Of a stretch of DNA of 64,000 nt, positions 2,645-52,362 are shown in pieces. Source of the DNA: Bryobacterales bacterium (GTDB taxonomy: Bacteria > Acidobacteriota > Terriglobia > Bryobacterales > UBA6623); NCBI GenBank assembly GCA_965208945.1, contig OZ242366.1, forward strand, positions 2,899,827 to 2,963,826, in the 5' to 3' direction. Made by a program: the position numbers and the translations under genes. Under the pieces are notes generated by a model. The model saw only the letters and a program-made list of their open reading frames with translations. It did no database searches and was not told where the DNA came from. Numbering within the stretch: the stretch's first letter is position 1; the number at the start of each line of letters is the position of its first letter.

Positions 2645-2659
2645 TAGAATCAGCATCTA

Positions 2660-2862
2660 GCCTCCATTTCTCACCACATGGCGAGGCGAAGTGGGTGAGA
2701 GGGCTGTCAGGACTAGGAGCAAGCCGGGCGGAGGAAAAAGGCGCGAGCCGCTTGGCGCGCGCAGGCGTACTTGAACAGTACGTTGAGCACGGCAAGCAAG
2801 CGCAACGAAGTCCTGGCGGTCGTATCGCGTGCTTCGACCGTCGGGTGGTGAGAAATGCAGGC
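2660..2862 (+). repeat. PAL element copy A1 (long form): TA-flanked palindromic MITE-like repeat
   Basis: Termini GCCTCCATTTCTCACCAC ... GTGGTGAGAAATGCAGGC, apex GTACTTGAACAGTAC, TA on both flanks (2658-2659, 2863-2864). Starts 15 bp after the lysR stop. Confidence 0.85.
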
Positions 2863-2965
2863 TAAAGCCCGTGCCGGTCAGCAAGCAAGACGTGAGGCGG
2901 CTGTCAAGCGGACAACAACCGGTGCTGCCCGAGAATGTACAGCGGAGTGAAAGCGAGGCAACCCA

Positions 2966-3193
2966 ATGACGAGTTGGGAGACCTGTGATGCCGTTGAACG
3001 CCATCCGAACAAGGTCAGCGGCGCCTGGGTGTTTCGTGGAACGCGCGTGCCCGTATCCGCGCTCTTCGAGAATCTCAAGGATGGCGCATCGGTCGAGCAG
3101 TTCCTGGAGTGGTTCCCCGGCGTCGAGGGATGGAAGGTGGAAGCGGTTCTCGCTCACGAAATGAAGGCGTTGGCCGACTCGGTTCGTTCGTGA
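2966..3193 (+). CDS. DUF433-type small protein (antitoxin-like partner of DUF5615/PIN-like genes)
   Basis: 75 aa. The segment HPNKVSGAWVFRGTRVPVSALFENLKDGASVEQFLEWFP resembles the DUF433 core as I recall it. Its stop overlaps the next ORF start by 4 nt (GTGA). Confidence 0.65.
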   Translation: MTSWETCDAVERHPNKVSGAWVFRGTRVPVSALFENLKDGASVEQFLEWFPGVEGWKVEAVLAHEMKALADSVRS

Positions 3194-3327
3194 GGATTCT
3201 GTTCGATCAGGGCGCACCTGTTCCCCTTCGCCGGCATCTCGCCGGACACTCGGTCGATACGGCCTTCAAGATTTTTCACGAATCACGAGACACGAGTCAC
3301 GAATCACGGCCTTTCATGCCAGACTGA
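3190..3327 (+). pseudogene. Truncated DUF5615 (Mut7-C/PIN-like) toxin remnant
   Basis: Starts at a GTG overlapping the DUF433 stop. The first ~27 codons (VRILFDQGAPVPLRRHLAGHSVDTAFK) look like a DUF5615 N-terminus. From ~3268 the frame is translated heptad-repeat DNA (IFHESRDTSHESRPF). Confidence 0.5.
3259..3314 (+). repeat. Heptad tract (CACGARN)n bounded by ACGGCCTT
   Basis: ACGGCCTTCAAGATTTTTCACGAATCACGAGACACGAGTCACGAATCACGGCCTTT. Confidence 0.8.
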
Positions 3328-4450
3328 CTCGCTTGACGCGGATCTTCTCGTCGTCGTAAACGCCGAGGCCCATGTTCCCGGCCAGTTCGATATGCTCGAC
3401 CTGGCAGTTCAGCCAGCGGCTGTCTTCGTCGGGTTTGAGCAGGGCGATGGATGGTACGCCGACCTCGGCGCGCTTCTCGTCGATGACCTTCCAGCCGGTC
3501 TTGTCGAGCGCCACCGGATCGGTCGCGAAGTACATCGTCTTGTGCTCCCACGTGTACTTGCCCACCTTGCTTCCCGGCCCGCCGTGATAGGCGCCCTTCA
3601 CGCCGTCGAGGATGTGCAGCTTCACCTTGTCGCGAATGATCGGCAGATCGACCACCGCCGGGATGAAGATGCCGCAGGCGTTCGCGGTCGTCGTGGCATG
3701 GCTGCGATTGACGTTGTTGACGAACCCGTGGGACATGTTCTTGAGGGCCAGAGTCACGCCCGCGGATTGGTGATGCTTCAGCACGCAGATGTTGATCACT
3801 TTGTCGACCGCTTGGCTGAGCCACTTGCAGACGTATGACCGCCGTATGTGCGGATCGTCCAGGCGGTACTCTTCCGCGTACTCCGGATGGACAAGCGGCA
3901 TTTCCATGTAGACGTCGCGGTCGTAGCCGTCCATGTCGAGCTGGATGCGGTGATAGGTCTCGGTGGCGTTCATGAAGCGCACGCCCTCGGGCAGCCATTT
4001 GTCGAAGCCCGCGCCCATGAACGAGGCCTTCGTGCGCTCATAGACGACGATATCCCTGTTCGGGATGCCGGCCTCGTTGAGTCCGTCCACGAGGGTGTGG
4101 AGAACCGTCTGGTCCGAGATCACGTAGGGCCGGCCGACGCCGTTGACCTTGATCCCGACGACGTCGCCCGGCTCGAAGAATTTCCGCAATGAATCGACGA
4201 GGCTCTCGGCGTGGGTCAACTCGGTCAAGCCGCGCTCGATCATGCCGTGGACGGCACCGCGCTGATATTCCCCCGCTACGATGCTGCCGGGATGGTCGAC
4301 GGCCACCACCCGTCCCGGGTAGGGCCCGGGTATGCCGGGCTGCGCCTCAGGATCGGTTGCGGCGGTTTGGTGTTCGGCGATTCGCTGTTGGCAGGCGGCG
4401 GCAGACGCCGCTAGCGAGGCGGCGAGAAACTCACGGCGGTCAAGGCTCAT
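3314..4450 (-). CDS. Tat-signal DUF362-domain protein
   Basis: ATG 4450 gives MSLDRREFLAASLAASAAAC (twin-arginine type). Internal GDVVGIKVNGVGRPYV and VLKHHQSAGVTLALKNMSHGFV resemble DUF362. The upstream part of the 524-aa track ORF is non-coding repeat DNA. Confidence 0.65.
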   Translation of the reverse strand: MSLDRREFLAASLAASAAACQQRIAEHQTAATDPEAQPGIPGPYPGRVVAVDHPGSIVAGEYQRGAVHGMIERGLTELTHAESLVDSLRKFFEPGDVVGIKVNGVGRPYVISDQTVLHTLVDGLNEAGIPNRDIVVYERTKASFMGAGFDKWLPEGVRFMNATETYHRIQLDMDGYDRDVYMEMPLVHPEYAEEYRLDDPHIRRSYVCKWLSQAVDKVINICVLKHHQSAGVTLALKNMSHGFVNNVNRSHATTTANACGIFIPAVVDLPIIRDKVKLHILDGVKGAYHGGPGSKVGKYTWEHKTMYFATDPVALDKTGWKVIDEKRAEVGVPSIALLKPDEDSRWLNCQVEHIELAGNMGLGVYDDEKIRVKRVSLA

Positions 4451-4607
4451 GCTCTGATTCTCCCGGACAAGAATATTTGGCATGATTGTACTCCCGTCAG
4501 AACACTTCTGGCCGGTCATGCGGCCCGCTGACACCTGCGAACCCGACCCCGGCCGGGAGTCGCGGGCGCTGTCTGCCTCCTCGGGCGGTCCTGAAACATT
4601 CTCCTGA

Positions 4608-4672
4608 TCAAGCGGCATCGATCCCGGCCCGGATGTTGCCGTCTTGGATGATCGGCGCGCGGGCGGAGGAAA
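4608..4672. repeat. Short dispersed repeat M1, copy a
   Basis: A 65-nt block, about 48/65 identical to 6468-6532, with conserved sub-blocks TCAAGCGGC, CCGGCCCGGATGTT, ATGATC and CGGGCGGAGGAAA. Confidence 0.6.
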
Positions 4673-4697
4673 GACTGGCTTGGCCTTGGGCCGGGAA

Positions 4698-4745
4698 GCA
4701 GGACAACGGACCGCCGCGTGAACCGGACTCGAATGTGAATCCTGG
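4698..4745. repeat. Short dispersed repeat M2, copy a
   Basis: GCAGGACAACGGACCGCCGCGTGAACCGGACTCGAATGTGAATCCTGG, near-identical to 7301-7349. Confidence 0.6.
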
Positions 4746-4761
4746 GCCGCGAAGAAAAGAA

Positions 4762-4998
4762 TTAGTTCGGCAGGTCGCCGGTGATCTTCGCCAGCACTTC
4801 GTCGAACAGGGCCGCTTTCTTGCTGGGTTTCTTCTTGGCGCCGCCTTTGCCACGCCGGTAGTTGTGAGTGTAATAACAGATGCGGCACTCGACCTTCGCG
4901 GGCGAGCCGTCAACGATCGAGACCACGGAGTGATTCGTCACCATCCTGCACTTCGAGCAGTGGTCATCGATCATGTCGCCAAGACGCAATTCGGACAT
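4762..4998 (-). CDS. Small zinc-ribbon-like protein (CxxC...CxxC) with a Lys-rich tail
   Basis: ATG 4998 is preceded by AGGAG. The product is MSELRLGDMIDDHCSKCRMVTNHSVV...VECRICYYTHNYRRGKGGAKKKPSKK. No named family recognised. Confidence 0.45.
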   Translation of the reverse strand: MSELRLGDMIDDHCSKCRMVTNHSVVSIVDGSPAKVECRICYYTHNYRRGKGGAKKKPSKKAALFDEVLAKITGDLPN

Positions 4999-7617: not shown

Positions 7618-9921
7618 GTGCGGATCGTGCTCCGTTTTCAACTTGAACCTGCGTGCCAAAATGGGCTTTCCGTGAACCATCCATCCAATACGCCGGTATC
7701 GAAGGACCTTGTCCTGGTCGGTGGCGGCCACAGCCATGTCACGGTCATCAAGCGCTTCGGCATGAAGCCGATTCCTGGAGTGCGGCTTACGCTGGTCTGC
7801 CGGGACGTTCACACGCCGTATTCCGGCATGCTGCCGGGGTTCATCGCCGGACACTACGACTACGACGATGCCCACATCGATCTCGTGCCGCTCGCGCGTT
7901 TCGCGGGAGCCCGCTTCATCCACGATGAAGTCACCGGCATCGACCTCGACAGGCGGGTGCTTCGATTTCGCAGCCGGCCGGATCTCGCCTATGACGTGCT
8001 CTCGATCAATACGGGCTCCACGCCGAGCCTCGACGTTCCGGGAGCGGCCGAACATGTCGTGCCCGTCAAGCCGATCAACAACTTCCTGTCCCGCTGGACG
8101 GGGCTCGTCGAACGCGTGCTTGCCCTTCACAGAACGCCGCGGATCGGCGTCGTGGGCGCCGGCGCGGGCGGCGTTGAGCTGACGCTCGCCGCGCAGTTCA
8201 GCCTGCGCAAGCGTCTTCGCTTGATGGGGTCGGATGTCGAGCCGGAGTTTCACCTGTTCGGCGGCGACCCGGCCGTCTTGCCGACGCACAACGTCCGGGT
8301 CCGACGCAAGTTCGAGCGCATTCTCGCCGAACGCGGGGTGAGCGTGCATACGTCGAGCGAAGTCAGCGAGGTGACGGAATCGGGGTTGCGCCTGCGGGGC
8401 GGCGAGCGGCACGAGTTGGACGAGGTCCTCTGGGTCACCAGCGCGTCGGCCCCCTCGTGGCCGCATGCGTGCGGCCTGGACGCCGATGAAAAAGGCTTCA
8501 TTCACGTGCGGCCCACGCTGCAAACGATCTCCCGCCCGGAAGTCTTCGCGGCGGGCGACGTGGCGGCCGTTGTGGACCATCCTCGCGAGAAGGCGGGCGT
8601 GTTCGCGGTGAGGCAGGGTCCGCCGCTCGAAGCCAACTTGCGCCGCGTCCTGCTCGGCCGGCAACCACGGCCGTTCCGGCCGCAAAGCAGGTTCTTGAGT
8701 CTTGTCAGCACCGGCGATCAATACGCCGTGGCTTCGCGTTCTTTCTGGGCGCTCGAAGGAAACTGGGTGTGGCGCTGGAAGGATTGGATCGACCGGCGAT
8801 TCATGGATAAGTACAACAAGCTGCCTGACATGGAGGGCGAGCCTGCCGGACCAACGCCGGCGGCTTCCGCAACGGCCTCCGAATCTCCGGCAATGCGATG
8901 TGCCGGCTGCGGTTCCAAGGTCGGCTCGGCGGTGTTGGAGAGAGCGCTGTCGCGCATCCGGCCGGTCGAGCGGTCCGACGTCATCACGGGGCTGGACCAG
9001 CCCGATGACGCGGCGGTCGTTCGCATTCCCAGTGGCAAGGTCGTCGTCCAGTCGGTCGACTTCTTCCGCGCTCTGGTTGACGACCCTTACCTTTTTGGCA
9101 AGATCGCGGCCAATCACTGCCTGAGCGACATTTTCGCCATGGGCGCCGAAGCGCAGACAGCCCTGGCCATCGCGGCGTTGCCTCTGGCGTCCGACGACAA
9201 GACGGAGGAGATGCTCGTTCAGTTGCTGCTGGGAGCGCAGGAAATCTTCTCGGACGCCGGCGCCGCGCTCGTCGGAGGCCACACCAGCGAGGGAGAGGAG
9301 CTTGCTCTCGGTTTCACCGTCACGGGCTTGGCGGACCAGGACGGCATCCTCCGCAAGCAGGGGCTGCAAACCGGCGACAGGCTCATCCTGACCAAACCAC
9401 TGGGTACGGGCGTTCTCTTCGCCGCCGAGATGCGCGGCAAGGCCAAGGGCCGTTGGATCGCCGCCGCGCTGGACTCCATGACCCAGCCCAACCGTCGCGC
9501 CGCGGAGATCCTGAAAGAGCACGGCGCGTCGGCCTGCACCGACGTCACCGGGTTCGGGCTCATCGGCCATCTGGGGGAAATGACCGGCGCCTCGGGAGTG
9601 GAGGTCGAGTTGTCGCTGTCGGCGGTCCCCCTCCTCGATGGCGCCTGCGAATCTGCGAAGGCGGGAATCCTCAGCTCGCTTCACCCTCAGAACTTGCGCT
9701 CCGAACAGGGTATCCGTGAACCGGCGAAGCAGCGCGGCCGAACGGAATACCCCGTGCTCTTCGATCCGCAGACATCCGGCGGACTGCTGGCGGGGATTCC
9801 GCCCCACAGCGCGGATGACTGCCTTGCGGGGCTGAAGCAGGCGGGCTGTTCCCGCGCGTCGATCGTCGGCGAGGTGCGTGGCGGCTCCGTTCACCCCGCC
9901 AACATCCTGCTTTCGGCTTGA
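7618..9921 (+). CDS. selD: Fusion protein: Ndh-like FAD/NAD(P)-binding oxidoreductase + selenide, water dikinase
   Basis: N-terminal half has a LVLVGGGHSH Rossmann motif and a second GVVGAGAGGVE motif. C-terminal half has RCAGCGSKVG (Cys-type SelD active site), DDAAVV and PYLFGKIAANHCLSDIFAMG. The exact start is uncertain (7618 or the GTG near 7672). Confidence 0.85.
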   Translation: MRIVLRFQLEPACQNGLSVNHPSNTPVSKDLVLVGGGHSHVTVIKRFGMKPIPGVRLTLVCRDVHTPYSGMLPGFIAGHYDYDDAHIDLVPLARFAGARFIHDEVTGIDLDRRVLRFRSRPDLAYDVLSINTGSTPSLDVPGAAEHVVPVKPINNFLSRWTGLVERVLALHRTPRIGVVGAGAGGVELTLAAQFSLRKRLRLMGSDVEPEFHLFGGDPAVLPTHNVRVRRKFERILAERGVSVHTSSEVSEVTESGLRLRGGERHELDEVLWVTSASAPSWPHACGLDADEKGFIHVRPTLQTISRPEVFAAGDVAAVVDHPREKAGVFAVRQGPPLEANLRRVLLGRQPRPFRPQSRFLSLVSTGDQYAVASRSFWALEGNWVWRWKDWIDRRFMDKYNKLPDMEGEPAGPTPAASATASESPAMRCAGCGSKVGSAVLERALSRIRPVERSDVITGLDQPDDAAVVRIPSGKVVVQSVDFFRALVDDPYLFGKIAANHCLSDIFAMGAEAQTALAIAALPLASDDKTEEMLVQLLLGAQEIFSDAGAALVGGHTSEGEELALGFTVTGLADQDGILRKQGLQTGDRLILTKPLGTGVLFAAEMRGKAKGRWIAAALDSMTQPNRRAAEILKEHGASACTDVTGFGLIGHLGEMTGASGVEVELSLSAVPLLDGACESAKAGILSSLHPQNLRSEQGIREPAKQRGRTEYPVLFDPQTSGGLLAGIPPHSADDCLAGLKQAGCSRASIVGEVRGGSVHPANILLSA

Positions 9922-10122
9922 CCTGCCTTTTTCGCCACGCGGCGAGGCGAAGCGCGTGAGAGGGCCGTCAGGACTAGGCGCAAGCCGGGCGGAGGAAAAA
10001 GGCGCGCGCCGCTTGGCGCGCGCAGGCGTACTTGAACAGTACATTGAGCACGGCAAGCAAGCGCAACGAAGTCATGGCGGTCATACCGCGTGCTTCGCCG
10101 TCGGGTGGTGAGACATGCAGGC
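9921..10122 (+). repeat. PAL element copy A2 (long form)
   Basis: Degenerate left terminus ACCTGCCTTTTTCGCCAC, starting on the last base of the selD TGA. Exact apex GTACTTGAACAGTAC. Right flank TA. Confidence 0.8.
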
Positions 10123-10220
10123 TAGGCCCCCGCCAATGGTTTTCACGAATCACGAGACACGAAACACGAATCACGGCCTTTTTCGTGTGCTTCGACCGTC
10201 GGGTGGTGAGAAAGGCAGGT
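10123..10220 (+). repeat. Tail module: GCCCCC..ATGG + heptad tract + solo PAL right arm
   Basis: TTTTCACGAATCACGAGACACGAAACACGAATCACGGCCTTTTT followed by CGTGTGCTTCGACCGTCGGGTGGTGAGAAAGGCAGGT and TA. The same layout occurs at 20623-20722, 51036-51134 and 52286-52362. Confidence 0.75.
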
Positions 10221-11231: not shown

Positions 11232-11481
11232 TAACCTGTATTTCTCATCACGTGGCGAGGCGAAGTGTCTGCCTGCTGCAGGCAGGCGTGAGAGGGCCGT
11301 CAGGATGAGGCGCGAGCCGTCCGCGTCAGCAACACGGCCTGCAAGGTTTTTCACGAGACACGAATCGAAACGCGAGACACGGTTTTTCCACGTCCCTCTG
11401 GCGACTCCAAGGAGAGCAACCCCAAGCGCGACTAACGGTTTTTCACGAAACACGAGACACGAGACACGAATCACGGCTTTT
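11232..11481 (+). repeat. Solo PAL left arm fused to heptad tracts
   Basis: TAACCTGTATTTCTCATCACGTGGCGAGGCGAAGTG...CAACACGGCCT followed by TTTTTCACGAGACACGAATCGAAACGCGAGACACGG and TTTTTCACGAAACACGAGACACGAGACACGAATCACGGCTTTT. Confidence 0.75.
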
Positions 11482-14121: not shown

Positions 14122-14206
14122 AAAAGCCGCCGTTGTGGATACTGTTCCGGCATGACGCCGAACTCCGTTTCAGGCAGCCTCCGCACAAGCTGGCCCGGCA
14201 GCGGCA

Positions 14207-14319
14207 AGCCTGCATTTCTCACCACGCGGCGAGACGAAGTGTGTGAGAGGACCGTCAGGACAAGGCGCGAGCCGCTGAGCGCCGGCAACACGGCCTTGAA
14301 GATTTTCCACGAACCACGG
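14207..14319 (+). repeat. Solo PAL left arm + short heptad stub
   Basis: AGCCTGCATTTCTCACCACGCGGCGAGACGAAGTGTGTGAGAGG...CAACACGGCCTTGAAGATTTTCCACGAACCACGG. Confidence 0.75.
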
Positions 14320-14391
14320 TTATAAAGCGGCCGGGCCGCCGCCTCGTGAGAGGCAAGCGGCCCGGGTTGAAGGTTGAACGGGTCTGGTCGT

Positions 14392-18279: not shown

Positions 18280-18327
18280 CGCTCTTTGTGCTCGATCGTA
18301 CGAAAAATGAACCTGAACGGCTGCTTT

Positions 18328-37670: not shown

Positions 37671-37757
37671 GGATTTCGACGCGAGCAAGATCGAGAACAG
37701 TTCCGGTTGGAGGATTTCGAGGCTCTCGATATCGCTTGAGGAATGACGGGAGGGATG
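37671..37757 (+). repeat. 87-bp direct repeat, copy 1 (partner 41979-42065)
   Basis: GGATTTCGACGCGAGCAAGATCGAGAACAGTTCCGGTTGGAGGATTTCGAGGCTCTCGATATCGCTTGAGGAATGACGGGAGGGATG. One mismatch to the partner copy. Confidence 0.85.
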
Positions 37758-37767
37758 GAAAGGAGAC

Positions 37768-37956: not shown

Positions 37957-38008
37957 CGACGACGGCGGAGTTGCATCATCGCCAGCATTGACTAAGAGGC
38001 AACCAGAC

Positions 38009-41692: not shown

Positions 41693-41978
41693 ATTTGCCC
41701 TGCGTCAAGCGAAGCTGCGTTCAACGATCTCTTCGTTGGCAAACGAGTGCGGTCAGACATCCCCAACAATGACGATCGAATCAGGGAGCCAATGCGCGCA
41801 GCAGTATCCCAAAGGAACGCTCGATGCAGGCCTGCAGTTTGGCCGGTACGCCGTTGGCGCACAACTCGGGTCGGAGAAAGGGCTGTCTTGATATCGGTTC
41901 CGGTTTCCTGAGCTACAGCCCCGGCAGCCTTGGCGAAAGGGGGACGGTCACCGCACCCTCGGGCAACCGCTATCCGTT

Positions 41979-42065
41979 GGATTTCGCCGCGAGCAAGATC
42001 GAGAACAGTTCCGGTTGGAGGATTTCGAGGCTCTCGATATCGCTTGAGGAATGACGGGAGGGATG
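41979..42065 (+). repeat. 87-bp direct repeat, copy 2
   Basis: See 37671-37757. Confidence 0.85.
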
Positions 42066-42118
42066 CTGACGCCACCAGAGGATCGGTCGGCCCCCGGAGA
42101 GCGGCCCGTGGCTGCTTA

Positions 42119-42299
42119 GCCTGCCTTTCTCACCACGTGGCGAGGCGAAGTGGGTGAGAGGGCCGTCAGGACGAGGCGCGAGCCGCTTGGCGCGCGCAGG
42201 CGTACTTGAGAACCGTACGTTGAGCACGGCAAGCAAGCGCAACGAAGTCCTGGCGGTCATATGGCGTGCTTCGACCGTCGGGTGGTGAGAAATGCAGGT
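42119..42299 (+). repeat. PAL element copy A8 (short form)
   Basis: TA on both flanks. Apex variant with a 2-nt insertion (GTACTTGAGAACCGTAC). Confidence 0.85.
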
Positions 42300-42408
42300 T
42301 AGGGCTTCGATGTCTCTGCGCCCCGCCGTATCCGCTGACGACAATTATTTTTAAGAATAACTAGAAGGTCACAATCTATCGTCAGCAATTCACATGAAGT
42401 TCATATTG

Positions 42409-42431
42409 CCCCTCTATTGTGAATTGAGGGG
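42409..42431 (+). promoter_or_regulatory. Hairpin pairing CCCCTC with the GAGGGG Shine-Dalgarno-like sequence of the S8 protease gene
   Basis: CCCCTC-tattgtgaatt-GAGGGG ends on the first base of the GTG start at 42431. It is nested inside the 9-bp inverted repeat CAATTCACA (42386-42394) / TGTGAATTG (42418-42426). Confidence 0.3.
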
Positions 42432-45400
42432 TGATTGCTTTTTCGAATTCGACGTCCAGGTGGCAAGTCGGTAAGCATCTGCCGCTGGGCATAATCGCGG
42501 GATTGGCTGGCTTGCTTGCCGCGTACCCGAACAGATCCCTCGGGCAGGAGGCAAGGCCGAGCCCGGCGGTCATGCAAATGATGACCGACGCCGCGGTCGC
42601 CCGGATCGCCGCGGAAAGCCGGGGGACACTTCGGGAGCCGGCTATCGAGGCCGCGCCGCGATCTTCTGAAGCGGCGTCCGCCGCCGATCGGACCTCGCGC
42701 GCCTCACGTCCCTCGCCGCCCGGCGGTTATTCGTTCGTCTCCCATCACGGGCGGATGCCCCGGGCGCGAATCGAGGATGAGTATGGCGCTGGAGACGAGC
42801 GCCCCGGTGCGGATCTTGACTGGCTTGAGTCGTCAACCTCGATCGAAACGCTGGCCGCCCACGCTGCCGAGGCCGGACGGGACTGGTCCTTCGGCTGGAT
42901 ACGACTCGCGGAGGACGCGGATCCGAATGACCTCGAGCGGTCGCTCCAAGGCTCGGGCGCCGAGATCGTCGGTTCCGCGGGCAGCCTGATGCGCGCCCGG
43001 CTTCCGGGCGAAGAATCCCGTCTGCAACGGATCGCGGCCTTGCCTCAGGTCGATGGACTGGGCGCCGTTCCGCCGGACCGGAAACTTCCCGAAGCGTTTG
43101 CCCGCGAGGTGTCCGAGGCGCCCCCGCAAGCACAGATGCCCGTGTTCATCACCCTGATGACGAACGATCCCGAAGGCCGCTGGCGGCGAGAGCTCGAGAC
43201 CCTGGGCGCGGTGGTGGGCCGCTTCGACCCGGACATCCGGGTCTACTCGGCCAATGTGTCCCGCTCTGTGCTCGAGGCGATCGCCGCGGCGGATTTCGTG
43301 CTGGCCGTCGAACCCATAGGCATCGTCGCAGCCGCTCACGACACCGCCGTTCCGGCCATGGGCGCGGATGCGCTGCGGCGGTTCGATGGCGCCCCAGGAC
43401 TTTTCTCGGGTATCGGCGGCTCGTCCGTTCCCATCGCCGTCATGGATTCGGGTCTCAACATCAATCACCTGGACATCGCATCGAACCGGCAGAGCATCTG
43501 CGGCGCCAACTTCGTTTGGTTTGGCGGCGGCGTACCGCTCCAGGAGTCCGAGGACTTGTGGATCGATGAAGGTGAACACGGAACCCACGTCACCGGAACC
43601 GTCGCCGGAAACGGTTATGTGGAACCGCGTTTCGCCGGCATGGCGCCCTCGGTGCGGCACATCCGTTTCGCCAAGGTCTTGCACAGCGAGGGTTTCGGAA
43701 ATGATGGCAGCATACTCCCAGGGATGGACTTTCTCGCCCGGCCGACGGGGTGCGCCGAAGCCGGCGGCCCTTCCGATCGGGTGAAGCCTCTGATCGTGAA
43801 TATGAGCCTGAGTGCGTCTTCCAGGGAATTCGAAGGCCGGGGCTCTAGCGCACGCAAGCTCGACTCCATCGTCTGGAGTCATCGTCAGCTCTATGTCGTG
43901 GCGCAATCGAACTCAGGCATCGACGGCTTTTCCCAATTCGGCGCCGCCAAGAACTCGCTGGCCGTCGGCGCCGCGATGGACAGCGGCGACCTCGCGGTGT
44001 TCAGCAGCCACGGGCCGACCTTCGACGGACGCCTGGCGCCCCAGGTGGTCGCCGCCGGCGTCCGGGTCCACTCGGCCCGAGGCGGCGGCAGCCGCGGCGA
44101 ATACCGTGAATTGAGCGGCACCAGCATGTCGTCACCCGCGGTGGCCGGAGTGGCCGCCCTGTTGATGGACGCGGTCCCCGAACATCGCGAACAGCCCGCG
44201 TTGACCCGGGCGAGGCTGATGGCCAGCGCTATCCGGCCGGACGCCTGGTTGGAGGACACCGAGGCATTCCCCATGACCAACACCAACGGGCCGGGGGCGC
44301 TGCAGGCCCAGTACGGTCTGGGCATGGTGTCGGCGCGCACCAGCGTGCTCAACCGGGACCGCGCCGACGGCTGGACCGGCGGCGGGGCGACCGCCGAGTT
44401 GCAAGGCGGAGAGTACGCCTACCGGGACATTACGGTGCCGGAAGGCGCCGGCCGTCTCGATCTCGTGATGACCTGGGACGAACCGCCTGTCGACACCATC
44501 GGCAGCGCGGTCCTGAACGATCTGGATCTGTGGCTGGACCGCGACGGCGACTGCGGAGCGGGAGCGTGCGGGGAGTATGTCTCCGCTTCCCGCGTGGACA
44601 ACGTGGAATGGATCATCCTCAGAAATCCCCGCCCGGGCATCTATCGGGCGAAAGTGGTGCCCCGCCGCGTCTACACCGCGGCGCCCCGCGCGGCGCTGGC
44701 CTGGACGGTGATCCGGGGCGCATCCACCCCGAGTCTCCGGATCGACGCCGACAAGGAGACCATCGACGGGGGCCGGGAAAACGAGTTGACCTTGACGGTG
44801 ACAGCGGACGAGTACGTGGCTGCCGGGACGCGGCTGCACATCGACTGCCGCGGCGACGGCGGCTCTTCAGGCTGCAACGATATACAGATTCACACCATGG
44901 CCGTGTCTCGCGAGGATGGAGTGCCGCTGGATCTGTCGGATGAACTGGGTCGGCTGGTTGAATTCGGGTACTTTGAATCACGTTCTCCCATCCCGCTTGG
45001 TTCGTCGATCCCGCTCGGCGAAATCTCCGCCGGTGAGGCCCAGGAAATCGAGTTGGTGGTTTCCTACAACAGGGAGGCGAGCCCGGTTCGCCTCTACTTC
45101 ACCGCGAGCGCCTGGAACGCGAAAGCGGCATCGGCATCGGTCGGTGTTCGAGCAGGCGGCTCGGACCGGTCCGAGGTTGCCGGCAGGCCCCCGAACGACG
45201 ACTTCGCGGCGGCGGCCGTTATCGAAGGCCGGGAGGGCTCTCGCGCGCTGGATCTGCTGCCGGCGACGCCGGAGCCGGGGGAGCCGCTGTTCACCCCCAC
45301 GCGGGGGCGGCCCGCCGGTTCGGTCTGGTATGAGTGGACGGCGGCGGAGGATGGTCCGGCCCGCTTCAACATCCCCCCGCGCGCGGATTTCGAGGACGCG

Positions 45401-48178
45401 CGCAACGACCGCTTGAGCGTCTTCCAAGGCGATCGAATCTCGGCTTTGGAGCAGGTCGCGGACGGTCTGTGGGGAGCGGCATTCTTTGCCGAGGAAGGCC
45501 GGTCCTATCGAATCCGGGTGAGCAACTTCGCAAGAGGGGCCGCCCTGAACCTGCGCTGGTCACAGGCGCCCCGCCCAGCCAACGACGACTTCACGCAGGC
45601 CATCGAGCTTGAAGGCGCGGAGGGTGCCGTCGAGGGCAGCGGCCAGGGCGCCACATTGGAGCCCGGCGAGTGGTTCGGGGCCGCGGCGGCCACCACCTGG
45701 TATCGCTGGACGGCGCCCCGCGACGGCCTTTGGAGGTTCTACAGCGGATCCGCGAGGCGTATCTTTGTATTCGAGAGTGACGGCATTTCCACACTGCGGC
45801 TGGTTTCGCACTACCCTTCATCGTCCGCCCGCTTCCCCGCCGGCGGCGGGAAGGAGTATCGCATCGCCGTTGCCGAGCAGGATGCCTACGCGGGCAGCGG
45901 TCCGTACCGACTGGAATGGTTTTCGTTGAGCAGCTACTCTCCCCGCCCCCGCAACGACCAGATTGCTGACGCGGAACCGATCGACAGCGCGCCATCGTCC
46001 GAACATGCCATTGGTGTCGATGACGGTTCGACGGTGGAGCCTGGAGAACCGGTTGAGAGCGGCGTCAGGACGAAGTGGTGGGTGTGGGAGGCCCCCGAAG
46101 GCGGTTACTACACTTGGCGGATCGCGGGTAGAAGCGAGTCCGATCTGGCCTATGCGAAGTTGCTGGTGACCGTGTTCACCGGCAGTTCCATCGAAAATCT
46201 GCAACTCATGGCCGAGAGCGGCCCGGACGCCGCGCCGTCCGATTTCGTCTTGCAGGCTGTGGGCGGTCAACGGTATTGGATCGCCGCCGGATTGCCGGCG
46301 GGAGACATCACGGCGTATACCCTGCAATCGGCCTCCGCCCGAGTGATCTGGGGACCGACCCCCGGCAACGACCATCTTTCTAGTGCCGAGCCGCTAACGG
46401 ACTCTGTCGGCTCGAGCTCGATCACCGGCTCGAACCGCTTTGCGACCGTCGAGCGAGGCGAGAGGTCCTCGGTCCTCGGTCACTCGTCTCTCTGGTGGAC
46501 CTACGAAGCGCCCGCTTCCGGCTGGTACCGCTTCTGGATTGATCAGACCGACGCTCCCTGGGTGCTGGCCGTCTACGATGACGTCGTCGGCGGCTTCGGA
46601 TCTCTTGATCTCGTGAACAGCCGCCGCCAGCCGGAGCGCATCGAGTCCGGCGCCATCGAGGTGATCTTTCGCGCCGAGGCCGGAGCCCGCTACACGATAC
46701 GGCTTGGAACCCGCGGCGCCGCCGAGGGCGGCGAGTTCACGATGAACTGGGGCAAGAGCGAAGCCCCGGTCTGGCTCAAGTACGCCGGACGCTTGGCCGA
46801 CGGCGGCCGGGACACCGCTGGGAACACGGTGGAACTCCGTCCTCCGATCAGCTTTGCGTTCAATGGCCGCGGCACGGCGCTCTATGCGGCCTCGCGGCTT
46901 GGAATGCAAGTCTTCGAACGCGATGTGCAAACCGGAGGTTTGACGCTGGTTCAGTCGCTGCAGGATTATGACCTGGAAGACAGTTCGCTGATCTGGTCCG
47001 CGTTTGAAAACAAACTCTACGTACATCAGTGCGGGATGTGGCGCAAGTTTGGACCTGTCGATGGAACACAACCGGGGCTCCGGGACGAGGGGACGTTGAC
47101 AGTGACGGGCTCCCCGGAAACCGTCGGTTGCAACATTCAAAGCGACGTTCGGGGCGACGTTTTCATGGACTCCGAAGAATCGTTCCTGCATGCGGTCGAT
47201 CCTTCCACGAGCAAGCTTCAGGTCTTTGACTTGGATAGGCCGGATACTCTCCAACACCTACAGACCCTCAGCGTTCCCGGTCTGAGGCGGGCCCTGATCT
47301 CGAACGATGACGGCCGCGTGTACGCGGTCACGCACGAGTCATTGCTCGTCTTCGAGCGCGATGCAGAAACAGGCCGGCTGACCCAGGTCCCTCGGGCAGG
47401 GAATGACGCAAGTCTGTTGTGGTTGGAATCCATCGTAATCAGCAGTGACGACCGCTACCTGTTCGCCTTCGACGACCGCGGTAGAAGGTCGAAAGTGTTC
47501 CAACTGGAAGACGACCCTTCCCGTCCGCAGCTTCTCGGTAGCCTGCCGCCGTTTTGGAACGCGCCAGAGCAGTACTCGCCCTGGGACAATCGGTGCGGGT
47601 TCTCCAGCGTGCGAACGGGAACCCCGGCGGCGGACGTCTTCTGCCGGAATATGGCCTTCAGCGTGCAGTGGCGACCGGAAAGCGGCGAGCTTGCGGCGAC
47701 CGACTACGTTGCGCCGTGGCAGCCGGACCGTTTCAACAACCACGTGCCCGAATTCGGCCATGCTCGAAATCTCGTTGCGAGTCCCGATGGAGGGCACGCC
47801 TATCTGGTCACGGAAGATAAAGGACTCCTGATCTTTGAACGCGTCGGAGTTGGCGCTGATGAATATGCGCCGCTCAAGATGCTCTCCGTATCGCCCGGCA
47901 AGGTCAGCTTTGGTCCTATGTCGACGGACATGGGAGGCTGTATTGGATTACAGGATGTTGTCGTCGGTGATGCCCGCTACAGCGTCGTCAATTCGAAGTG
48001 GCAGACGAGGGCGAATTCGGATGCCGAATGGACGGACATCGAGGGAACGGAGACGAACGGCGAAGTCTGCTCGTATACGCCGTCATCCCCGGCGCATGCA
48101 AGACTGGTTGCGGAAATCGCCATTGACGGCGAAACAGGAAAGTACGCCAGCAAAAACTTCCTGACCGTAGAGCCATAG
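42431..48178 (+). CDS. Giant secreted subtilisin-like (S8) protease with repeated NDDF-type beta-sandwich modules and a C-terminal beta-propeller-like region
   Basis: 1915 aa. Triad context VAVMDSG / HGTHVTGT / GTSMSSPAVAG. Four modules start P(P/A/R)ND(D/Q/H). The C-terminal repeats LxVFERDxxTGxL resemble lactonase-type propeller blades. Confidence 0.85.
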   Translation: MIAFSNSTSRWQVGKHLPLGIIAGLAGLLAAYPNRSLGQEARPSPAVMQMMTDAAVARIAAESRGTLREPAIEAAPRSSEAASAADRTSRASRPSPPGGYSFVSHHGRMPRARIEDEYGAGDERPGADLDWLESSTSIETLAAHAAEAGRDWSFGWIRLAEDADPNDLERSLQGSGAEIVGSAGSLMRARLPGEESRLQRIAALPQVDGLGAVPPDRKLPEAFAREVSEAPPQAQMPVFITLMTNDPEGRWRRELETLGAVVGRFDPDIRVYSANVSRSVLEAIAAADFVLAVEPIGIVAAAHDTAVPAMGADALRRFDGAPGLFSGIGGSSVPIAVMDSGLNINHLDIASNRQSICGANFVWFGGGVPLQESEDLWIDEGEHGTHVTGTVAGNGYVEPRFAGMAPSVRHIRFAKVLHSEGFGNDGSILPGMDFLARPTGCAEAGGPSDRVKPLIVNMSLSASSREFEGRGSSARKLDSIVWSHRQLYVVAQSNSGIDGFSQFGAAKNSLAVGAAMDSGDLAVFSSHGPTFDGRLAPQVVAAGVRVHSARGGGSRGEYRELSGTSMSSPAVAGVAALLMDAVPEHREQPALTRARLMASAIRPDAWLEDTEAFPMTNTNGPGALQAQYGLGMVSARTSVLNRDRADGWTGGGATAELQGGEYAYRDITVPEGAGRLDLVMTWDEPPVDTIGSAVLNDLDLWLDRDGDCGAGACGEYVSASRVDNVEWIILRNPRPGIYRAKVVPRRVYTAAPRAALAWTVIRGASTPSLRIDADKETIDGGRENELTLTVTADEYVAAGTRLHIDCRGDGGSSGCNDIQIHTMAVSREDGVPLDLSDELGRLVEFGYFESRSPIPLGSSIPLGEISAGEAQEIELVVSYNREASPVRLYFTASAWNAKAASASVGVRAGGSDRSEVAGRPPNDDFAAAAVIEGREGSRALDLLPATPEPGEPLFTPTRGRPAGSVWYEWTAAEDGPARFNIPPRADFEDARNDRLSVFQGDRISALEQVADGLWGAAFFAEEGRSYRIRVSNFARGAALNLRWSQAPRPANDDFTQAIELEGAEGAVEGSGQGATLEPGEWFGAAAATTWYRWTAPRDGLWRFYSGSARRIFVFESDGISTLRLVSHYPSSSARFPAGGGKEYRIAVAEQDAYAGSGPYRLEWFSLSSYSPRPRNDQIADAEPIDSAPSSEHAIGVDDGSTVEPGEPVESGVRTKWWVWEAPEGGYYTWRIAGRSESDLAYAKLLVTVFTGSSIENLQLMAESGPDAAPSDFVLQAVGGQRYWIAAGLPAGDITAYTLQSASARVIWGPTPGNDHLSSAEPLTDSVGSSSITGSNRFATVERGERSSVLGHSSLWWTYEAPASGWYRFWIDQTDAPWVLAVYDDVVGGFGSLDLVNSRRQPERIESGAIEVIFRAEAGARYTIRLGTRGAAEGGEFTMNWGKSEAPVWLKYAGRLADGGRDTAGNTVELRPPISFAFNGRGTALYAASRLGMQVFERDVQTGGLTLVQSLQDYDLEDSSLIWSAFENKLYVHQCGMWRKFGPVDGTQPGLRDEGTLTVTGSPETVGCNIQSDVRGDVFMDSEESFLHAVDPSTSKLQVFDLDRPDTLQHLQTLSVPGLRRALISNDDGRVYAVTHESLLVFERDAETGRLTQVPRAGNDASLLWLESIVISSDDRYLFAFDDRGRRSKVFQLEDDPSRPQLLGSLPPFWNAPEQYSPWDNRCGFSSVRTGTPAADVFCRNMAFSVQWRPESGELAATDYVAPWQPDRFNNHVPEFGHARNLVASPDGGHAYLVTEDKGLLIFERVGVGADEYAPLKMLSVSPGKVSFGPMSTDMGGCIGLQDVVVGDARYSVVNSKWQTRANSDAEWTDIEGTETNGEVCSYTPSSPAHARLVAEIAIDGETGKYASKNFLTVEP

Positions 48179-49196: not shown

Positions 49197-49340
49197 TCTT
49201 TCTCAGGGGGAACAGAGGGAGACAGCTTGCAGGCTTGCTGCAACAGAGTCCGATGATGGTAACACGGAGTGGGACGAACGCGCCTCCATGCGCTGTCGGA
49301 ATCCATGCCGCTGTGTGCGGGGATGCGGGTCGCCGGTCTT

Positions 49341-49392
49341 AGCCTGCATGTCTCACCACGTGGCGAGGCGAAGTGGGTGAGAGGGCCGTCAG
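49341..49392 (+). repeat. Solo PAL left-arm fragment
   Basis: AGCCTGCATGTCTCACCACGTGGCGAGGCGAAGTGGGTGAGAGGGCCGTCAG, with TA on the left flank. Followed by ACATTTCTTCTGGAGCGAAC, a motif also found at 20597-20620. Confidence 0.75.
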
Positions 49393-49414
49393 ACATTTCT
49401 TCTGGAGCGAACTA

Positions 49415-49503
49415 GCCTGCATTTCTCACCACATGGCGAGGCGAAGTGTGTGAGAGGGCCGTCAGGACGAGGCGCGAGCTGCTTGGCGCGCGCAGGCGTA
49501 CTT
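49415..49503 (+). repeat. PAL element copy A9, left half (interrupted by the IS)
   Basis: Consensus left arm ending GCAGGCGTACTT. TA on the left flank. Confidence 0.85.
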
Positions 49504-49604
49504 ATGGGATGGTTCGCTCCCACTTCCGCTGCGTCGTCGAGTTCGGCCATGCTGGTAGCAACGGCCGTCCCCGGCCGCAGTTCACGAACCGAGAGGAAAC
49601 CATC

Positions 49605-50678
49605 ATGGCAACGACCCAGCGATCATCCCGCAAGAGCGTATGGAAGGAGGTCGTCACGATCGGCCTCGATCTAGCAAAACACAACGTCGACTTGGTCGGC
49701 TTGGACGCAACCGGCCGGGTGCTCACCCGTCGCCGCTACTCGAAGGGCAAGCTGCTGGAGGTGACCGCCCAGATGCAGCCCTGCCGTATCGGCATGGAAG
49801 CCTGCTGCGGCGCCCATCACCTGGGCCGCCAACTGCTGGCCCAGGGGCACGACGTGAAGCTGATGCCGCCCAAATATGTGAAGCCCTTTGTGAAGCGCGA
49901 CAAGAACGACTCGACGGACGCCGAGGCCTGCGCGGAAGCCTGTCTGCGGCCGAGCATGCGCTTCGTGGCGGTCAAGAGCGAGCAACAACTGTCGATGCAG
50001 TCGCTGCACCGCTATCGCTCGCGGCTGGTGGGCAACTCGACGCAGTTGATCAACCAGGCGCGCGCCTTTCTGCTGGAACGCGGCATCACCCTTCCACAGG
50101 GCAAGCGTTGGTTTGTGGTCCGTCTGCCGGAGATCCTCGAGGACGCCGATAACGGCCTGTCCGACGAAATGCGGGCGCTGCTGGCGGGCATGTTTGCCGA
50201 ATGGCAAGTGCTGGCAGAGAAGATTCAGCAAGTCAACACCTATCTGCTGAGGAAAGCGCAGGCGAGCGAGGCCTGCCGGCGGCTCAGAGAGATCCCCGGC
50301 ATCGGCGTGCAGACAGCGACGGCCTTGGTGGCGACGATCGGCAACGCCGAGGCCTTCGAGAAGGGGCGCGACGTCGCTGCTTGGTTGGGTCTGGTGCCGA
50401 GAGAGTACTCCAGCGGAGGCAAGCAGCGCTTGGGAGGCATCAGCAAGCGCGGCAACCGCTACGTCCGGACGCTGCTGGTGCACTGTGCCCGCTCGAGCCT
50501 CGACGTGCTCGCGAAGCGCAGCGACCAACTCGGCCAGTGGCTGCGGCGGATGCTCCTGAACAAAGATCGGCGGGTCGTGATCGTGGCGCTGGCGGCACGG
50601 CTGGCGCGCATCGCATGGGCCTTGCTGAGCAGCGGCCAGCGCTTCTCTCAACAGCGGCAACCAGCCCCGGCGGGTTAA
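49605..50678 (+). CDS. IS110-family DEDD recombinase/transposase
   Basis: ATG 49605 is preceded by GAGAGGA. VVTIGLDLAKHNVDLVGLD (DEDD N-terminal domain). IPGIGVQTATALVATIGN...AAWLGLVPREYSSGGKQRLGGISKRGNRYVR (C-terminal Transposase_20-type domain). Confidence 0.85.
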   Translation: MATTQRSSRKSVWKEVVTIGLDLAKHNVDLVGLDATGRVLTRRRYSKGKLLEVTAQMQPCRIGMEACCGAHHLGRQLLAQGHDVKLMPPKYVKPFVKRDKNDSTDAEACAEACLRPSMRFVAVKSEQQLSMQSLHRYRSRLVGNSTQLINQARAFLLERGITLPQGKRWFVVRLPEILEDADNGLSDEMRALLAGMFAEWQVLAEKIQQVNTYLLRKAQASEACRRLREIPGIGVQTATALVATIGNAEAFEKGRDVAAWLGLVPREYSSGGKQRLGGISKRGNRYVRTLLVHCARSSLDVLAKRSDQLGQWLRRMLLNKDRRVVIVALAARLARIAWALLSSGQRFSQQRQPAPAG

Positions 50679-50942
50679 CCGCCCTGCGGTCCGCCGTAGC
50701 ACTACCAGGAGCTCACAGTTTGTCTGCTTACTCCCGATTGATGGACAAAACGGTCGTACCGGCGTCACCGAATCCTGTTACTGTTCATGGCCCTCACAGG
50801 TCGGCGTACTTATGAGGAGCGGGACGTGCGGACCCCATCATGGCCCGGAACCAGCGCGGTTCCACCTAGAGGTCGGATATATTGGCGCAGACCAACGTTC
50901 AGCAAGAAGGAATAGGTGGACATCCCGGGAGCGAACCATATA
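50679..50942 (+). ncRNA. Candidate bridge/seek RNA region in the IS right non-coding end
   Basis: 264-nt non-coding right end versus 101 nt on the left. It contains GGCGTACTTATG (identical to the left target-IS junction), TACTGTTCA (reverse complement of the right target flank), ATATATTG (right IS end plus core) and the local hairpin GGAACC-agcgc-GGTTCC. Confidence 0.4.
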
Positions 50943-51034
50943 TTGAACAGTACGTTGAGCACGGCAAGCAAGCGCAACGAAGTCCTGGCGGTCATATCGC
51001 GTGCTTCGACCGTCGGGTGGTGAGAAATGCAGGC
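50943..51034 (+). repeat. PAL element copy A9, right half
   Basis: Resumes TTGAACAGTACGTTGAGCACGGCAAGC and ends GTGGTGAGAAATGCAGGC followed by TA. Confidence 0.85.
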
Positions 51035-51250
51035 TAGGCCCCCACCCATGGTTTTCACGAATCACGAGACACGAAACACGAATCACGGCCTTTTTTCGCG
51101 TGCTTCGACCGTCGGGTGGTGAGAAATGCAGGCTAGTCACAAGCCACTGCTTTTAAGGTTTTTCACGAATCACGAGACACGAAACACGAATCACGGCCTT
51201 TTCCAGACCCGAATCACGGCCTTTCCGTGGCTCGTATGGTGTCCGTTGGT

Positions 51251-51276
51251 ACTGAAGCCCTTCAGTCTTGTTTTTT
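51251..51276 (+). terminator. Hairpin + T-run module, copy 2
   Basis: ACTGAAGCCCTTCAGT then CTTGTTTTTT, downstream of the heptad tract starting at 51157. Confidence 0.3.
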
Positions 51277-51529
51277 CCGCCCCGGTCTGCTAAGCATGAT
51301 GGCGGCGAGGCACAGTCCGTGTGGGTCACGGATCAGGTCTTCCAAGGCGTTCACTTGCCATAAGCCACTGATTTCAAGGGTTTTAACGAAACACGAAACC
51401 CGAGACGCGGGTTCGCCTGGCGCGCCGCGCAGGCCAGCGCGAATTCCGAGGTTTTCACGAAACACGAGACCCGAGACACGAATCACGGCTTTTTCCAGCC
51501 ACGGTTTTGTCGAATCGTTGCCTCTTGGT

Positions 51530-51553
51530 ACTGAAGGGCTTCAGTCTTTTTTT
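51530..51553 (+). terminator. Hairpin + T-run module, copy 3
   Basis: ACTGAAGGGCTTCAGT then CTTTTTTT, downstream of the heptad tract starting at 51450. The loop differs from copies 1-2 while the stem is conserved. Confidence 0.3.
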
Positions 51554-52105
51554 CGGCCGGAAGCCGGTGTAGGTTGAGAGTGATGACGCCGTTGCTGGGA
51601 CCGAAAACCTCATCCGCGCCCGTCGGGGCCAAGTCGGGTGGGGACAGAAGAGCCGCCCGGTCGCTGCTTTCCTGCGCGTTGTGGCGCGGCATGGGGCGGC
51701 TATGGCGCGGCATGGGCGGCATGGGGCGCCCCGAGCCGCTGTCCGCGCACCGTCCGCACCAGCAACAGGGCCTTTCAGGTATTCACGAAACCCGAGACGC
51801 GGGTTCGCCTGGCGCGCCGCGCAGGCCCGCGCGAATTCCGAGGTTTTCACGAAACACGAGACCCGAATCACGGCTTTTATGCTTTTCACGAGTCACGGCT
51901 TTTATCGCCGCCCGGTCGCTGCTTTCCTGCGCGTTGTGGCGCAACGGTTGCGCCGCTATGGCGTGGCTATGGAGCGGCTGTGGCGCGTGTGGGGCGGCTA
52001 TGGCGATAGCGCGGCATGGGCGGCCGTGGAGCGGCATGGGCGGCATATTGCCCCCGCGCCAGTGTCCCCGCTCCCGTCAGCCTTTCTCGGTCGGCCTCAC
52101 GACTG

Positions 52106-52284
52106 GCCTGCATTTCTCACCACGTGGCGAGGCGAAGTGCGTGAGAGGGCCGTCAGGACGAGGCGCGAGCCGCTTGGCGCGCGCAGGTGTACTTGAACAG
52201 TACATCGAGCACGGCAAGCAAGCGCAACGAAGTCATGGCGGTCATACCACGTGCTTCGACCGTCGGGTGGTGAGACATGCAGGC
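52106..52284 (+). repeat. PAL element copy A10 (short form)
   Basis: Consensus termini, exact apex. Flanks are TG / TT rather than TA. Confidence 0.85.
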
Positions 52285-52285
52285 T

Positions 52286-52362
52286 TGGCCCCCTCCCATG
52301 GTTTTCACGAATCACGGCCTTTTTTCGCGTGCTTCGACCGTCGGGTGGTGAGAAATGCAGGT
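52286..52362 (+). repeat. Tail module (short heptad stub + solo right arm)
   Basis: GGCCCCCTCCCATGGTTTTCACGAATCACGGCCTTTTTTCGCGTGCTTCGACCGTCGGGTGGTGAGAAATGCAGGT followed by TA. Confidence 0.75.

Follow-up and report, generated by a model that had tools for sequence, protein, structure and literature searches.

Short bacterial repeats such as the Correia elements (CREE/NEMIS), RUP and ERIC/IRU are non-coding sequences of about 100-200 bp with terminal repeats, short TA-containing duplications and the potential to fold into long hairpins, which are mobilised in trans or orphaned and occur in hundreds of intergenic copies. The Correia elements have a 26-bp repeat and duplicate TA. Members of the IS1380 family of insertion sequences (ISs), as delineated in ISfinder, are autonomous elements of 1.5-2 kb with one open reading frame (ORF), inverted ends that begin with CC, and direct repeats of 4-5 bp. 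Here, we analyze PAL, an abundant palindromic element in a 64-kb stretch of a Bryobacterales (Acidobacteriota) genome (contig OZ242366.1, 2,899,827-2,963,826; hereafter the window, to which all coordinates refer). PAL is of the same kind as the Correia, RUP and ERIC repeats, and we conclude with high confidence that it is a family of miniature inverted-repeat transposable elements (MITEs) of Bryobacterales with a CTAG target, most likely moved in trans by an IS1380-family transposase. As such, it is a new family of a well-known element type, and only the co-orientation of its copies and the strand-specific pairing of its hairpin go beyond the ordinary.

The 18-mer GCCTGCATTTCTCACCAC has 27 matches with up to three mismatches in the window, against 0.05 expected from shuffles. 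A scan with this 18-mer across one genome per species yielded at least 81 loci (labeled L001 and so on), most of them from metagenome-assembled genomes (MAGs) of Bryobacterales, including the 6.3-Mb chromosome OZ241991.1; a scan of viral contigs gave no match. Together, the window and these loci hold 81 full PAL copies as detected with a profile, with an identity of about 91% among copies of one genome and about 89% across genomes. L040, from the MAG RHO3_bin_12, is 95.7% identical to window positions 12814-20281; therefore, the window comes from a close relative of that MAG. Two further loci, L085 and L086, reached via a homologue of the aminotransferase in the window, are syntenic with it and about 92% identical. 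The names alone of the MAGs suggest sponge metagenomes as their source.

A profile made from nine PAL copies and run over the window recovered every item listed in an earlier first-pass annotation at the positions given there, namely ten full copies, five left arms (starting at about 11230, 14206, 18324, 22110 and 49337) and four right arms; together they amount to about 2.6 kb (about 2.5 kb in that account), or some 4% of the window. The copies fall into two size classes of 179 and 202-203 nt, with a mean column identity of 83% in the alignment of the listed copies; measured between the duplications described below they span 177-201 nt and contain no transposase gene. The size difference is due to a 24-nt block after GTCAGGAC, as noted before; rather than being a straightforward internal duplication, its start only imperfectly repeats the adjacent AGGCGCGAGCCG. 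In the long class this block creates an internal CTAG.

Both ends carry a 17-bp terminal inverted repeat (CCTGCATTTCTCACCAC / GTGGTGAGAAATGCAGG). Among 93 elements with both terminal repeats, conservation outside the repeats extends over 4 nt on either side, which read YTAR, most often CTAG, with one-step variants besides; the positions beyond are random. CTAG is self-complementary, and therefore only the non-palindromic flanks are informative as to whether a duplication or a longer inverted repeat is present: in ten cases the two sides agree in direct orientation (TTAG five times, CTGG three times, and CTAA and TCAG), and in one as inverted complements. Hence, the flanks are a 4-bp target-site duplication, a feature missing from the earlier description, around a 17-bp repeat, with no longer inverted repeat; the terminal repeats had been given as 18 bp, with an outermost G/C that belongs to the duplication. 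The family members in the window are as follows (the heptamers are tandem CACGARW units of longer variants, discussed below, and 'solo arm' is the earlier designation).

2661-2861, plus strand: full PAL copy, long class (201 nt between duplications), flanks CTAG and CTAA.
9922-10121, plus strand: full PAL copy, long class, flanks TTGA and CTAG; the TGA is the stop codon of an upstream 767-aa ORF.
10126-10219, plus strand: right half of a heptamer variant (GCCCCCGCCAATGG, then (CACGARW)n, right arm and terminal repeat), abutting the preceding copy; formerly a solo right arm.
11235-11481, plus strand: left arm running into heptamer modules, without a right terminal repeat; formerly a solo left arm.
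14209-14320, plus strand: left arm followed by a degenerate heptamer module, apparently present also in L040, where the BLAST alignment is unbroken.
18330-18413, plus strand: left-arm fragment, with a left-arm fragment at the matching position in L085/L086; this segment is unaligned in L040.
18697-18873, plus strand: full PAL copy, short class, flanks CTAG and CTAA; empty in L040 (CCGG) and L085 (CTGA).
20285-20484, plus strand: full PAL copy, long class, flanks TTAA and CTAG; the TAA is the stop codon of an scpB-like ORF.
20490-20720, plus strand: remainder of a long or heptamer-type variant (GCGCAAGCCGGG..., heptamers, ... right arm and terminal repeat); formerly a solo right arm.
22111-22298, plus strand: left arm and heptamer block of about 190 nt, absent at the orthologous L085 site.
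27539-27715, plus strand: full PAL copy, short class, flanks ATAG and CTGG; in L085/L086 the site is empty, with one CTAG.
28060-28233, minus strand: chimeric PAL variant with a reverse-complemented right arm in place of its outer left arm, flanks CTGA and CTAG.
32483-32683, plus strand: full PAL copy, long class, flanks CTAG and CTAA.
42120-42298, plus strand: full PAL copy, short class with 2 extra nt in the loop, flanks TTAG and TTAG, a direct non-palindromic duplication.
49343-49411, plus strand: left part of a heptamer-type host variant, into whose internal CTAG (49412-49415) the next copy has inserted.
49416-49503, plus strand: left half of a split PAL, up to the loop position ...GCGTACTT.
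49504-50942, plus strand: IS110/IS1111-type insertion sequence in the PAL loop, transposase at 49605-50678.
50943-51033, plus strand: right half of the split PAL (TTGAACAGTAC...); the whole copy is flanked by CTAG and CTAG.
51038-51132, plus strand: right part of the host heptamer-type variant; formerly a solo right arm.
52107-52283, plus strand: full PAL copy, short class, flanks CTGG and CTTG.
52288-52361, plus strand: right half of a heptamer-type variant; formerly a solo right arm.

Comparison with the relatives provides the corresponding empty sites. Across a 21-kb syntenic region, L085/L086 have one PAL fragment against at least seven PAL-type insertions in the window. At 27539-27715, they read CTCTGCGTG-CTAG-ATTGATCG and the window reads CTCTCCGTG-ATAG[PAL]CTGG-ATTGATCG, that is, one tetranucleotide when empty and two when filled. 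At 18697-18873, L040 has AAACC-G-CCGG-C-GCTTCC, L085 has AAACC-G-CTGA-C-GCTTCC, and the window has AAACC-T-CTAG[PAL]CTAA-C-GCTTCC; here, the lengths agree with a 4-bp duplication and the bases have drifted. These empty sites, along with the absence of the 22111-22298 block from L085, establish that PAL spread after these lineages had split.

The first-pass annotation had suggested a search for an autonomous element with the same termini. At up to three mismatches, none was present in the loci first fetched by the 18-mer. A search for CC-initial inverted repeats 0.7-3.5 kb apart, with YTAR flanks and up to six mismatches, led to IS1380-family elements in sister genomes, the closest relative among them. 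In L001, a 1,724-bp element directly adjoins a PAL copy and reads CTAG-CCCGCATTTCTCACCAGCGG ... CCCCTGGTGAGATATCCGGG-CTAG around a 487-aa ORF, which matches the Pfam model DDE_Tnp_1_4 (E = 2.7e-147) and the NCBIfam transpos_IS1380 equivalog (388 bits, cut-off 180). The element of L083 (RHO3_bin_12) reads CTAG-CCCGGATATCTCACCAGG ... GCTGGTGAGAAATGCAGG-CTAG, and across L001, L082 and L083 the arrangement is CTAG-CCCGGATATCTCACCAG ... CTGGTGAGAAATGCAGG-CTAG with an ORF of 481-487 aa. Homologues of the transposase at 85-94% identity are encoded in the PAL-rich chromosomes OZ241991.1 and OZ244625.1 and in RHO3_bin_12. Even in the more distant L090 and L091, with transposases 73% and 66% identical, respectively, ends of the form CC[CT]G[CG]AT[TA]TCTCAC and the CTAG duplications are kept. 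Thus, all five copies have the same form, about 1.72 kb with one ORF and CC-initial ends between 4-bp CTAG repeats, and a strict CTAG target is a property of this IS1380 clade. The right end of the IS agrees with the PAL repeat at 16 of 17 positions. Members of the IS1380 family are known to recognize surrogate sequences resembling their inverted repeats (PMC9330008). We propose that PAL, which has no coding capacity, is most likely mobilized by the DDE transposase of this 1.7-kb IS.

In other groups, including Verrucomicrobiota, Planctomycetota, other Terriglobia and a deltaproteobacterial MAG, the same 18-mer delimits short elements whose interiors are quite different. This can be understood because the IS1380 clade keeps its ends and its CTAG target; one such clade has given rise to several unrelated MITE families. 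In Verrucomicrobiota (L056, L029, L024 and L066), we observed a short element, about 110 nt long, that shares the left terminal repeat and holds a second, nested element with ends GAAAGCAAAACCGCG...CGCGGTTTTGCC at its internal CTAG. In planctomycete and Terriglobia elements (L050, L051 and L011), the shared terminal repeat is likewise followed by short CAC-led tandem repeats.

PAL therefore presents the features by which MITEs are recognized: it is short, has no transposase gene, carries terminal repeats within a fixed 4-bp duplication, has empty sites in relatives, is dispersed in many copies and is matched in ends and duplication by an autonomous element in related genomes. Of the two readings offered by the first-pass annotation, that of a non-autonomous transposon that swept the genome has held up on all these counts. 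Nevertheless, several points weigh against PAL being simply a MITE mobilized by this transposase. At its left end, the IS agrees with the PAL repeat in only 13 of 17 positions; no clear likeness between the two elements extends beyond the terminal 17-19 nt, and therefore their pairing is founded on ends and duplication rather than on a deletion-derivative relation; and a tblastn search with the partner transposase found no IS1380 transposase in the window, in agreement with the earlier statement that no matching transposase is present there. At 18697-18873, the empty-site tetranucleotides (CCGG/CTGA) and one adjacent base differ from the window, such that additional mutation has to be assumed. 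Finally, changes that preserve pairing are favored on one strand, which falls outside a simple selfish-MITE model, and within a locus adjacent full copies share their orientation in 20 cases and oppose each other in one, which is unexpected for a selfish MITE with two near-identical ends. We consider these last two points in greater detail below.

The strongest alternative retains mobility and adds that PAL is a structured single-stranded RNA or DNA whose hairpin is under selection on one strand for a function at the level of the host or of transposition. We regard this as possible, though we do not favor it. The forward strand of the one copy folded forms a single long hairpin, as had been proposed, of -112.8 kcal/mol (z = -10.4 against shuffles), and the reverse strand folds more weakly at -80.5 kcal/mol. 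In an alignment of 46 short-class copies with 55 pairs, 98.7% of the cells hold standard pairs. Changes on both sides affect 10 of the 55 pairs against 1.7 +/- 1.1 in shuffles (none of 500 reached the observed value), and controls with slid partners all fall below the true pairing, although with shared descent the counts of two-sided changes are not independent events. A second test at Watson-Crick pairs, made independent of shared ancestry, considered single transitions at 47 sites each way: forward-strand G-U/G-T wobbles outnumber A-C mismatches by 17 to 5 events and 42 to 6 cells (p = 0.017). The unpaired columns have no excess of C>T (9 C>T against 17 G>A events). Moreover, PAL remains about 89% identical across genomes whose coding DNA is only 65-75% identical. 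These observations are suggestive of a hairpin that matters when single-stranded, on one strand.

Against this stand the small covariation term of RNAalifold (-1.89 kcal/mol) and a wobble asymmetry of only 8 to 3 in the consensus. PAL orientation is unrelated to the direction of the flanking genes, which argues against a role in mRNA; neither a sigma-70-like promoter nor an intrinsic terminator was predicted inside any copy; and searches of Rfam 15 gave no match at gathering scores across the whole window and none at E <= 1 over 49300-51300. The earlier suggestion of a structured element under selection thus has modest evidence in its favor, from compensatory changes above shuffles and strand-specific pairing, and would be a layer added to the MITE rather than a replacement for it. 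Any effect of the hairpin on the host would be a further step from these sequence patterns.

The co-orientation extends to smaller pieces: adjacent fragments of at least 40 bits have the same orientation in 65 cases and opposite orientations in 7. In the window, the only reversed copy is that at 28060-28233, earlier counted as an ordinary full copy and listed above as the chimeric variant; eight intact full copies lie on the plus strand, as do the two halves of the split copy and every one of the nine fragments. We observed that the arm swap of the chimera gives a more perfect outer stem, and this variant may have arisen by hairpin-templated correction or by recombination between oppositely oriented copies.

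We tried and rejected several causes of this local polarity. An apparent link to GC skew (42 versus 21) vanished once PAL was masked (24 versus 29 loci). A two-replichore model of OZ241991.1 fits 15 of 21 loci (permutation p = 0.65-0.76), and orientation switches between the sampled loci of this chromosome number 10 against 10.5 expected. The direction of genes has no influence (fraction of coding bases co-oriented with PAL 0.516, p = 0.69), and after masking no 4-8-mer was convincingly skewed as a polar oligomer would be. Neighboring copies are no more alike than distant ones (0.897 versus 0.911 identity). Hence, identity carries no signal of local hopping, though a single old burst may give the same result. 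Some IS families are known to favor one orientation relative to replication, a bias that rearrangements should obscure (PMC3971601); for PAL, no replication signal emerged at all. Candidate explanations would be an old burst of local transposition that preserved orientation, insertion dependent on a neighboring copy, or a local polar function. A joint explanation of co-orientation and the strand-specific hairpin, in which IS1380-type insertion is orientation-specific through a local mechanism, or in which PAL has been recruited for a polar function of the chromosome or of an RNA, strikes us as doubtful, and a shade more so than one-strand selection as such. The local mechanism might involve a single-stranded hairpin intermediate or target capture guided by a neighboring copy.

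Returning to the MITE itself, an assignment to the IS630/Tc1 type is very unlikely. IS630 duplicates TA within CTAG, and on this model the terminal repeat would be 18 bp with a TA duplication inside the CTAG target, as is indeed evoked by the nearly invariant TA beside GCC...GGC and by the commonest flank, C-TA-[GCC...GGC]-TA-G. However, the direct repeats TTAG...TTAG (five times) and CTGG...CTGG (three times) would then need matched mutations at both ends; an empty site has one CTAG against two tetranucleotides in the filled site; and the element with matching ends encodes an IS1380-family transposase. We give still less credence to a REP/REPIN-like palindrome spread by a RAYT (Y1) transposase, or to a host-generated repeat that arose without transposition. 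In its favor, an IS110/IS1111-type element targets PAL, which is palindromic, intergenic and abundant, and REP sequences have been described as targets of such elements; however, the target-site duplications, 17-bp inverted ends and clean empty sites contradict it, as do ends that match a DDE IS, the lack of a GTAG-type 5' motif and a length of about 180 bp against 20-40. The prospect that PAL is an assembly artefact or a duplication confined to the window, raised in the first-pass annotation, is practically negligible, since the copies differ by about 9%, lie between unrelated housekeeping genes and recur in many independent assemblies (at least 10 of Bryobacterales), including long-read chromosomes.

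The MITE reading also accounts for the fragments. Relatives have longer PAL variants of 264-303 nt, in which the inner right half is replaced by ...GGCCGTCAGACATTTCTTCTGGAGCGAA-CTAG-GCCCCCNCCNATGG and a run of CACGARW heptamers. We found PAL nested in PAL (L001), an IS1380 element nested in a long-class PAL (L083), and, in the window, the PAL of 49416-51033 inside a heptamer-type host that extends from 49343 to 51132. Family members thus also insert at one another's internal CTAG sites, and such insertions give rise to mosaics and apparent solo arms. Accordingly, the right arms ending at 10220, 20722, 51134 and 52362 and the left arm at 49341 are halves of host variants, and the left arms at 11232, 14207 and 22110 continue into heptamer modules without a right terminal repeat. 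The 'solo arms' of the earlier description thus stand in position, but as halves or mosaics of longer variants, a nested origin which it did not include. In L082 (OZ241991.1, 4629301-4636764) we observed a triple nesting, with an IS1380-family element inside the transposase gene of an IS110-type element, itself inside a PAL loop.

The heptamers form tandem runs of 3-5 units (CACGAAT/CACGAGA/CACGAAA, consensus GGTTTTCACGAATCACGAGACACGAAACACGAATCACGGCCTTT), which are located in the window at 3277, 10144, 11444, 20644, 22439, 22478, 51056, 51164, about 51450, and 51842. Across loci they are co-oriented with PAL by 50 to 0. They were considered as an independent co-oriented family and rejected as such, being a module of the longer PAL variants; they therefore provide no independent evidence of co-orientation.

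The target also bears on where PAL lands. In a window with a G+C content of 61-65%, CTAG is rare and overlaps stop codons, and therefore copies land between genes, often right on a stop codon. An adjacent coding-like ORF ends on the TAG, TAA or TGA within the duplication in 18 of the 93 elements; the instances in the window are 9919-9921, 20282-20284 and 28057-28059. In the frame of PAL, neighboring genes are convergent (+,-) in 21 cases, tandem in 10 (+,+) and 6 (-,-), and divergent (-,+) in 8. Stop codons are probably a main source of YTAR in this GC-rich DNA. We also observed several downstream ORFs whose first ATG falls within the right terminal repeat (GAGAAATGCAGG), e.g., at 18867, 27709 and 32677; such an ATG can mislead start-codon calling.

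PAL is itself a target. The copy at 49415-49503 and 50943-51034 had been recognized as split, but the cause had been missed: a 1,439-bp element (49504-50942) lies between GCGTACTT and TTGAACAGTAC, exactly in the loop of the hairpin, with TT on both sides. Its 357-aa protein matches the NCBIfam model 'IS110 family RNA-guided transposase' (335 bits, cut-off 140), and subterminal inverted repeats (GGTTCGCTCCC / GGGAGCGAACC) and a 264-nt non-coding region 3' of the transposase gene are present. A long 3' non-coding region has been described for the IS1111 type (bioRxiv 10.1101/2024.04.26.591405). With its predicted DEDD transposase, subterminal repeats, 3' non-coding region and site-specific insertion, the element can be assigned on sequence grounds to the IS110/IS1111 family.

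The non-coding region contains GGTCGGCGTACTTATGAGGAG, equivalent to the left flank of the target followed by the left end of the IS, and GGTCGGATATATTGGCGCAGACC, equivalent to the right end of the IS and the right flank of the target; these junction-like candidate guide segments are at 50799-50819 and 50871-50893, and GGCGTACTT is a segment of the PAL loop target. Relatives 87-90% identical to this element occupy the same loop position in three more independent PAL copies (L082 at 1777-4947, L094 and L093/L095). Others, 75-78% identical (among L093-L099), are inserted elsewhere, and in these the guide-like segment has changed together with the target. One distant relative has the target GCCAAAGTT at the right end of another IS1380-family element and the guide-like segment GACAAAGTT; in another case the target is GCGACAGTT and the guide-like segment GGTCTAGTT. 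These matches and their co-variation point to the 3' non-coding region as a putative RNA guide, and its predicted RNA fold is no stabler than shuffles (z = +1.66).

The remaining content of the window comprises ordinary housekeeping genes (gyrA, scpA, fumarase and purC), along with genes for a Ser/Thr kinase and for an outer-membrane protein of the TonB type that bears a carboxypeptidase-regulatory domain. The fumarase gave no exact match in a look-up of existing records. At 32677-48178, three very large ORFs (1614, 1264 and 1915 aa) share internal repeats of about 396 and about 680 nt (repeat families D4, D6, D8, D11 and D12), and their orthologue in L085 bears trypsin and CARDB domains. On the minus strand, 59529-63998 holds four tandem paralogous genes of about 1.3 kb each, the fourth cut by the window end, which are 66-76% identical (D5, D10 and D16); the one scanned is an amidohydrolase. 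A 2.3-kb segment (30419-32704), with most of the Ser/Thr kinase gene and a PAL copy, is missing at L085 15326. Two DUF29 genes are confined to L085/L086 (L085 4016-5862) and have no counterpart in the window, and an insertion of about 490 nt unrelated to PAL separates L086 from L085 (L086 13440-14006).

More generally, a single transposon system accounts for about 4% of the window and probably for a similar share of several Bryobacterales genomes, and its ends, target and partner can now be used by annotators to mask it. Because the target overlaps stop codons, insertions fall precisely where genes end and in some cases provide the stop codon, which can alter the 3' ends of transcripts and confuse gene calling. 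As a natural landing pad for an IS110/IS1111-type element, PAL offers a small natural series in which the putative guide changes with the target, and its co-orientation poses a concrete question that can be resolved on complete public chromosomes.

A literature search returned no match to the terminal-repeat sequence and, among the papers searched, no described IS1380-derived MITE. Set against the described families, PAL is distinguished from the Correia elements by its 17-bp repeat, 4-bp CTAG duplication, identifiable IS1380-family partner and acidobacterial host, and we know of no description of strong local co-orientation for the Correia, RUP or ERIC families. Its partner resembles the IS1380 family (ISEcp1, ISPme1 and IS1380) in transposase, CC-initial ends and 4-bp duplication; PAL, unlike those elements, has no transposase and carries two right-end-like repeats. 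With REP, BIME and REPIN sequences it shares the role of an abundant intergenic palindrome serving as an IS110/IS1111 landing pad, with four independent PAL copies occupied at one loop position; unlike them, it is a DDE-type MITE with target duplications rather than a RAYT-associated REP. The piggyBac-derived MITEs of eukaryotes, e.g., MER85, are short non-autonomous elements with a TTAA target. They parallel PAL in their palindromic, TA-centered 4-bp duplication (TTAA; in PAL CTAG and sometimes TTAA), CC-initial ends and origin as short non-autonomous derivatives, and differ in eukaryotic host and tetranucleotide, the comparison being one of features. IS1380 has served as the prokaryotic outgroup of piggyBac (PMC10813416), and the strict-CTAG IS1380 clade links bacterial MITEs such as PAL to this IS1380/piggyBac lineage.

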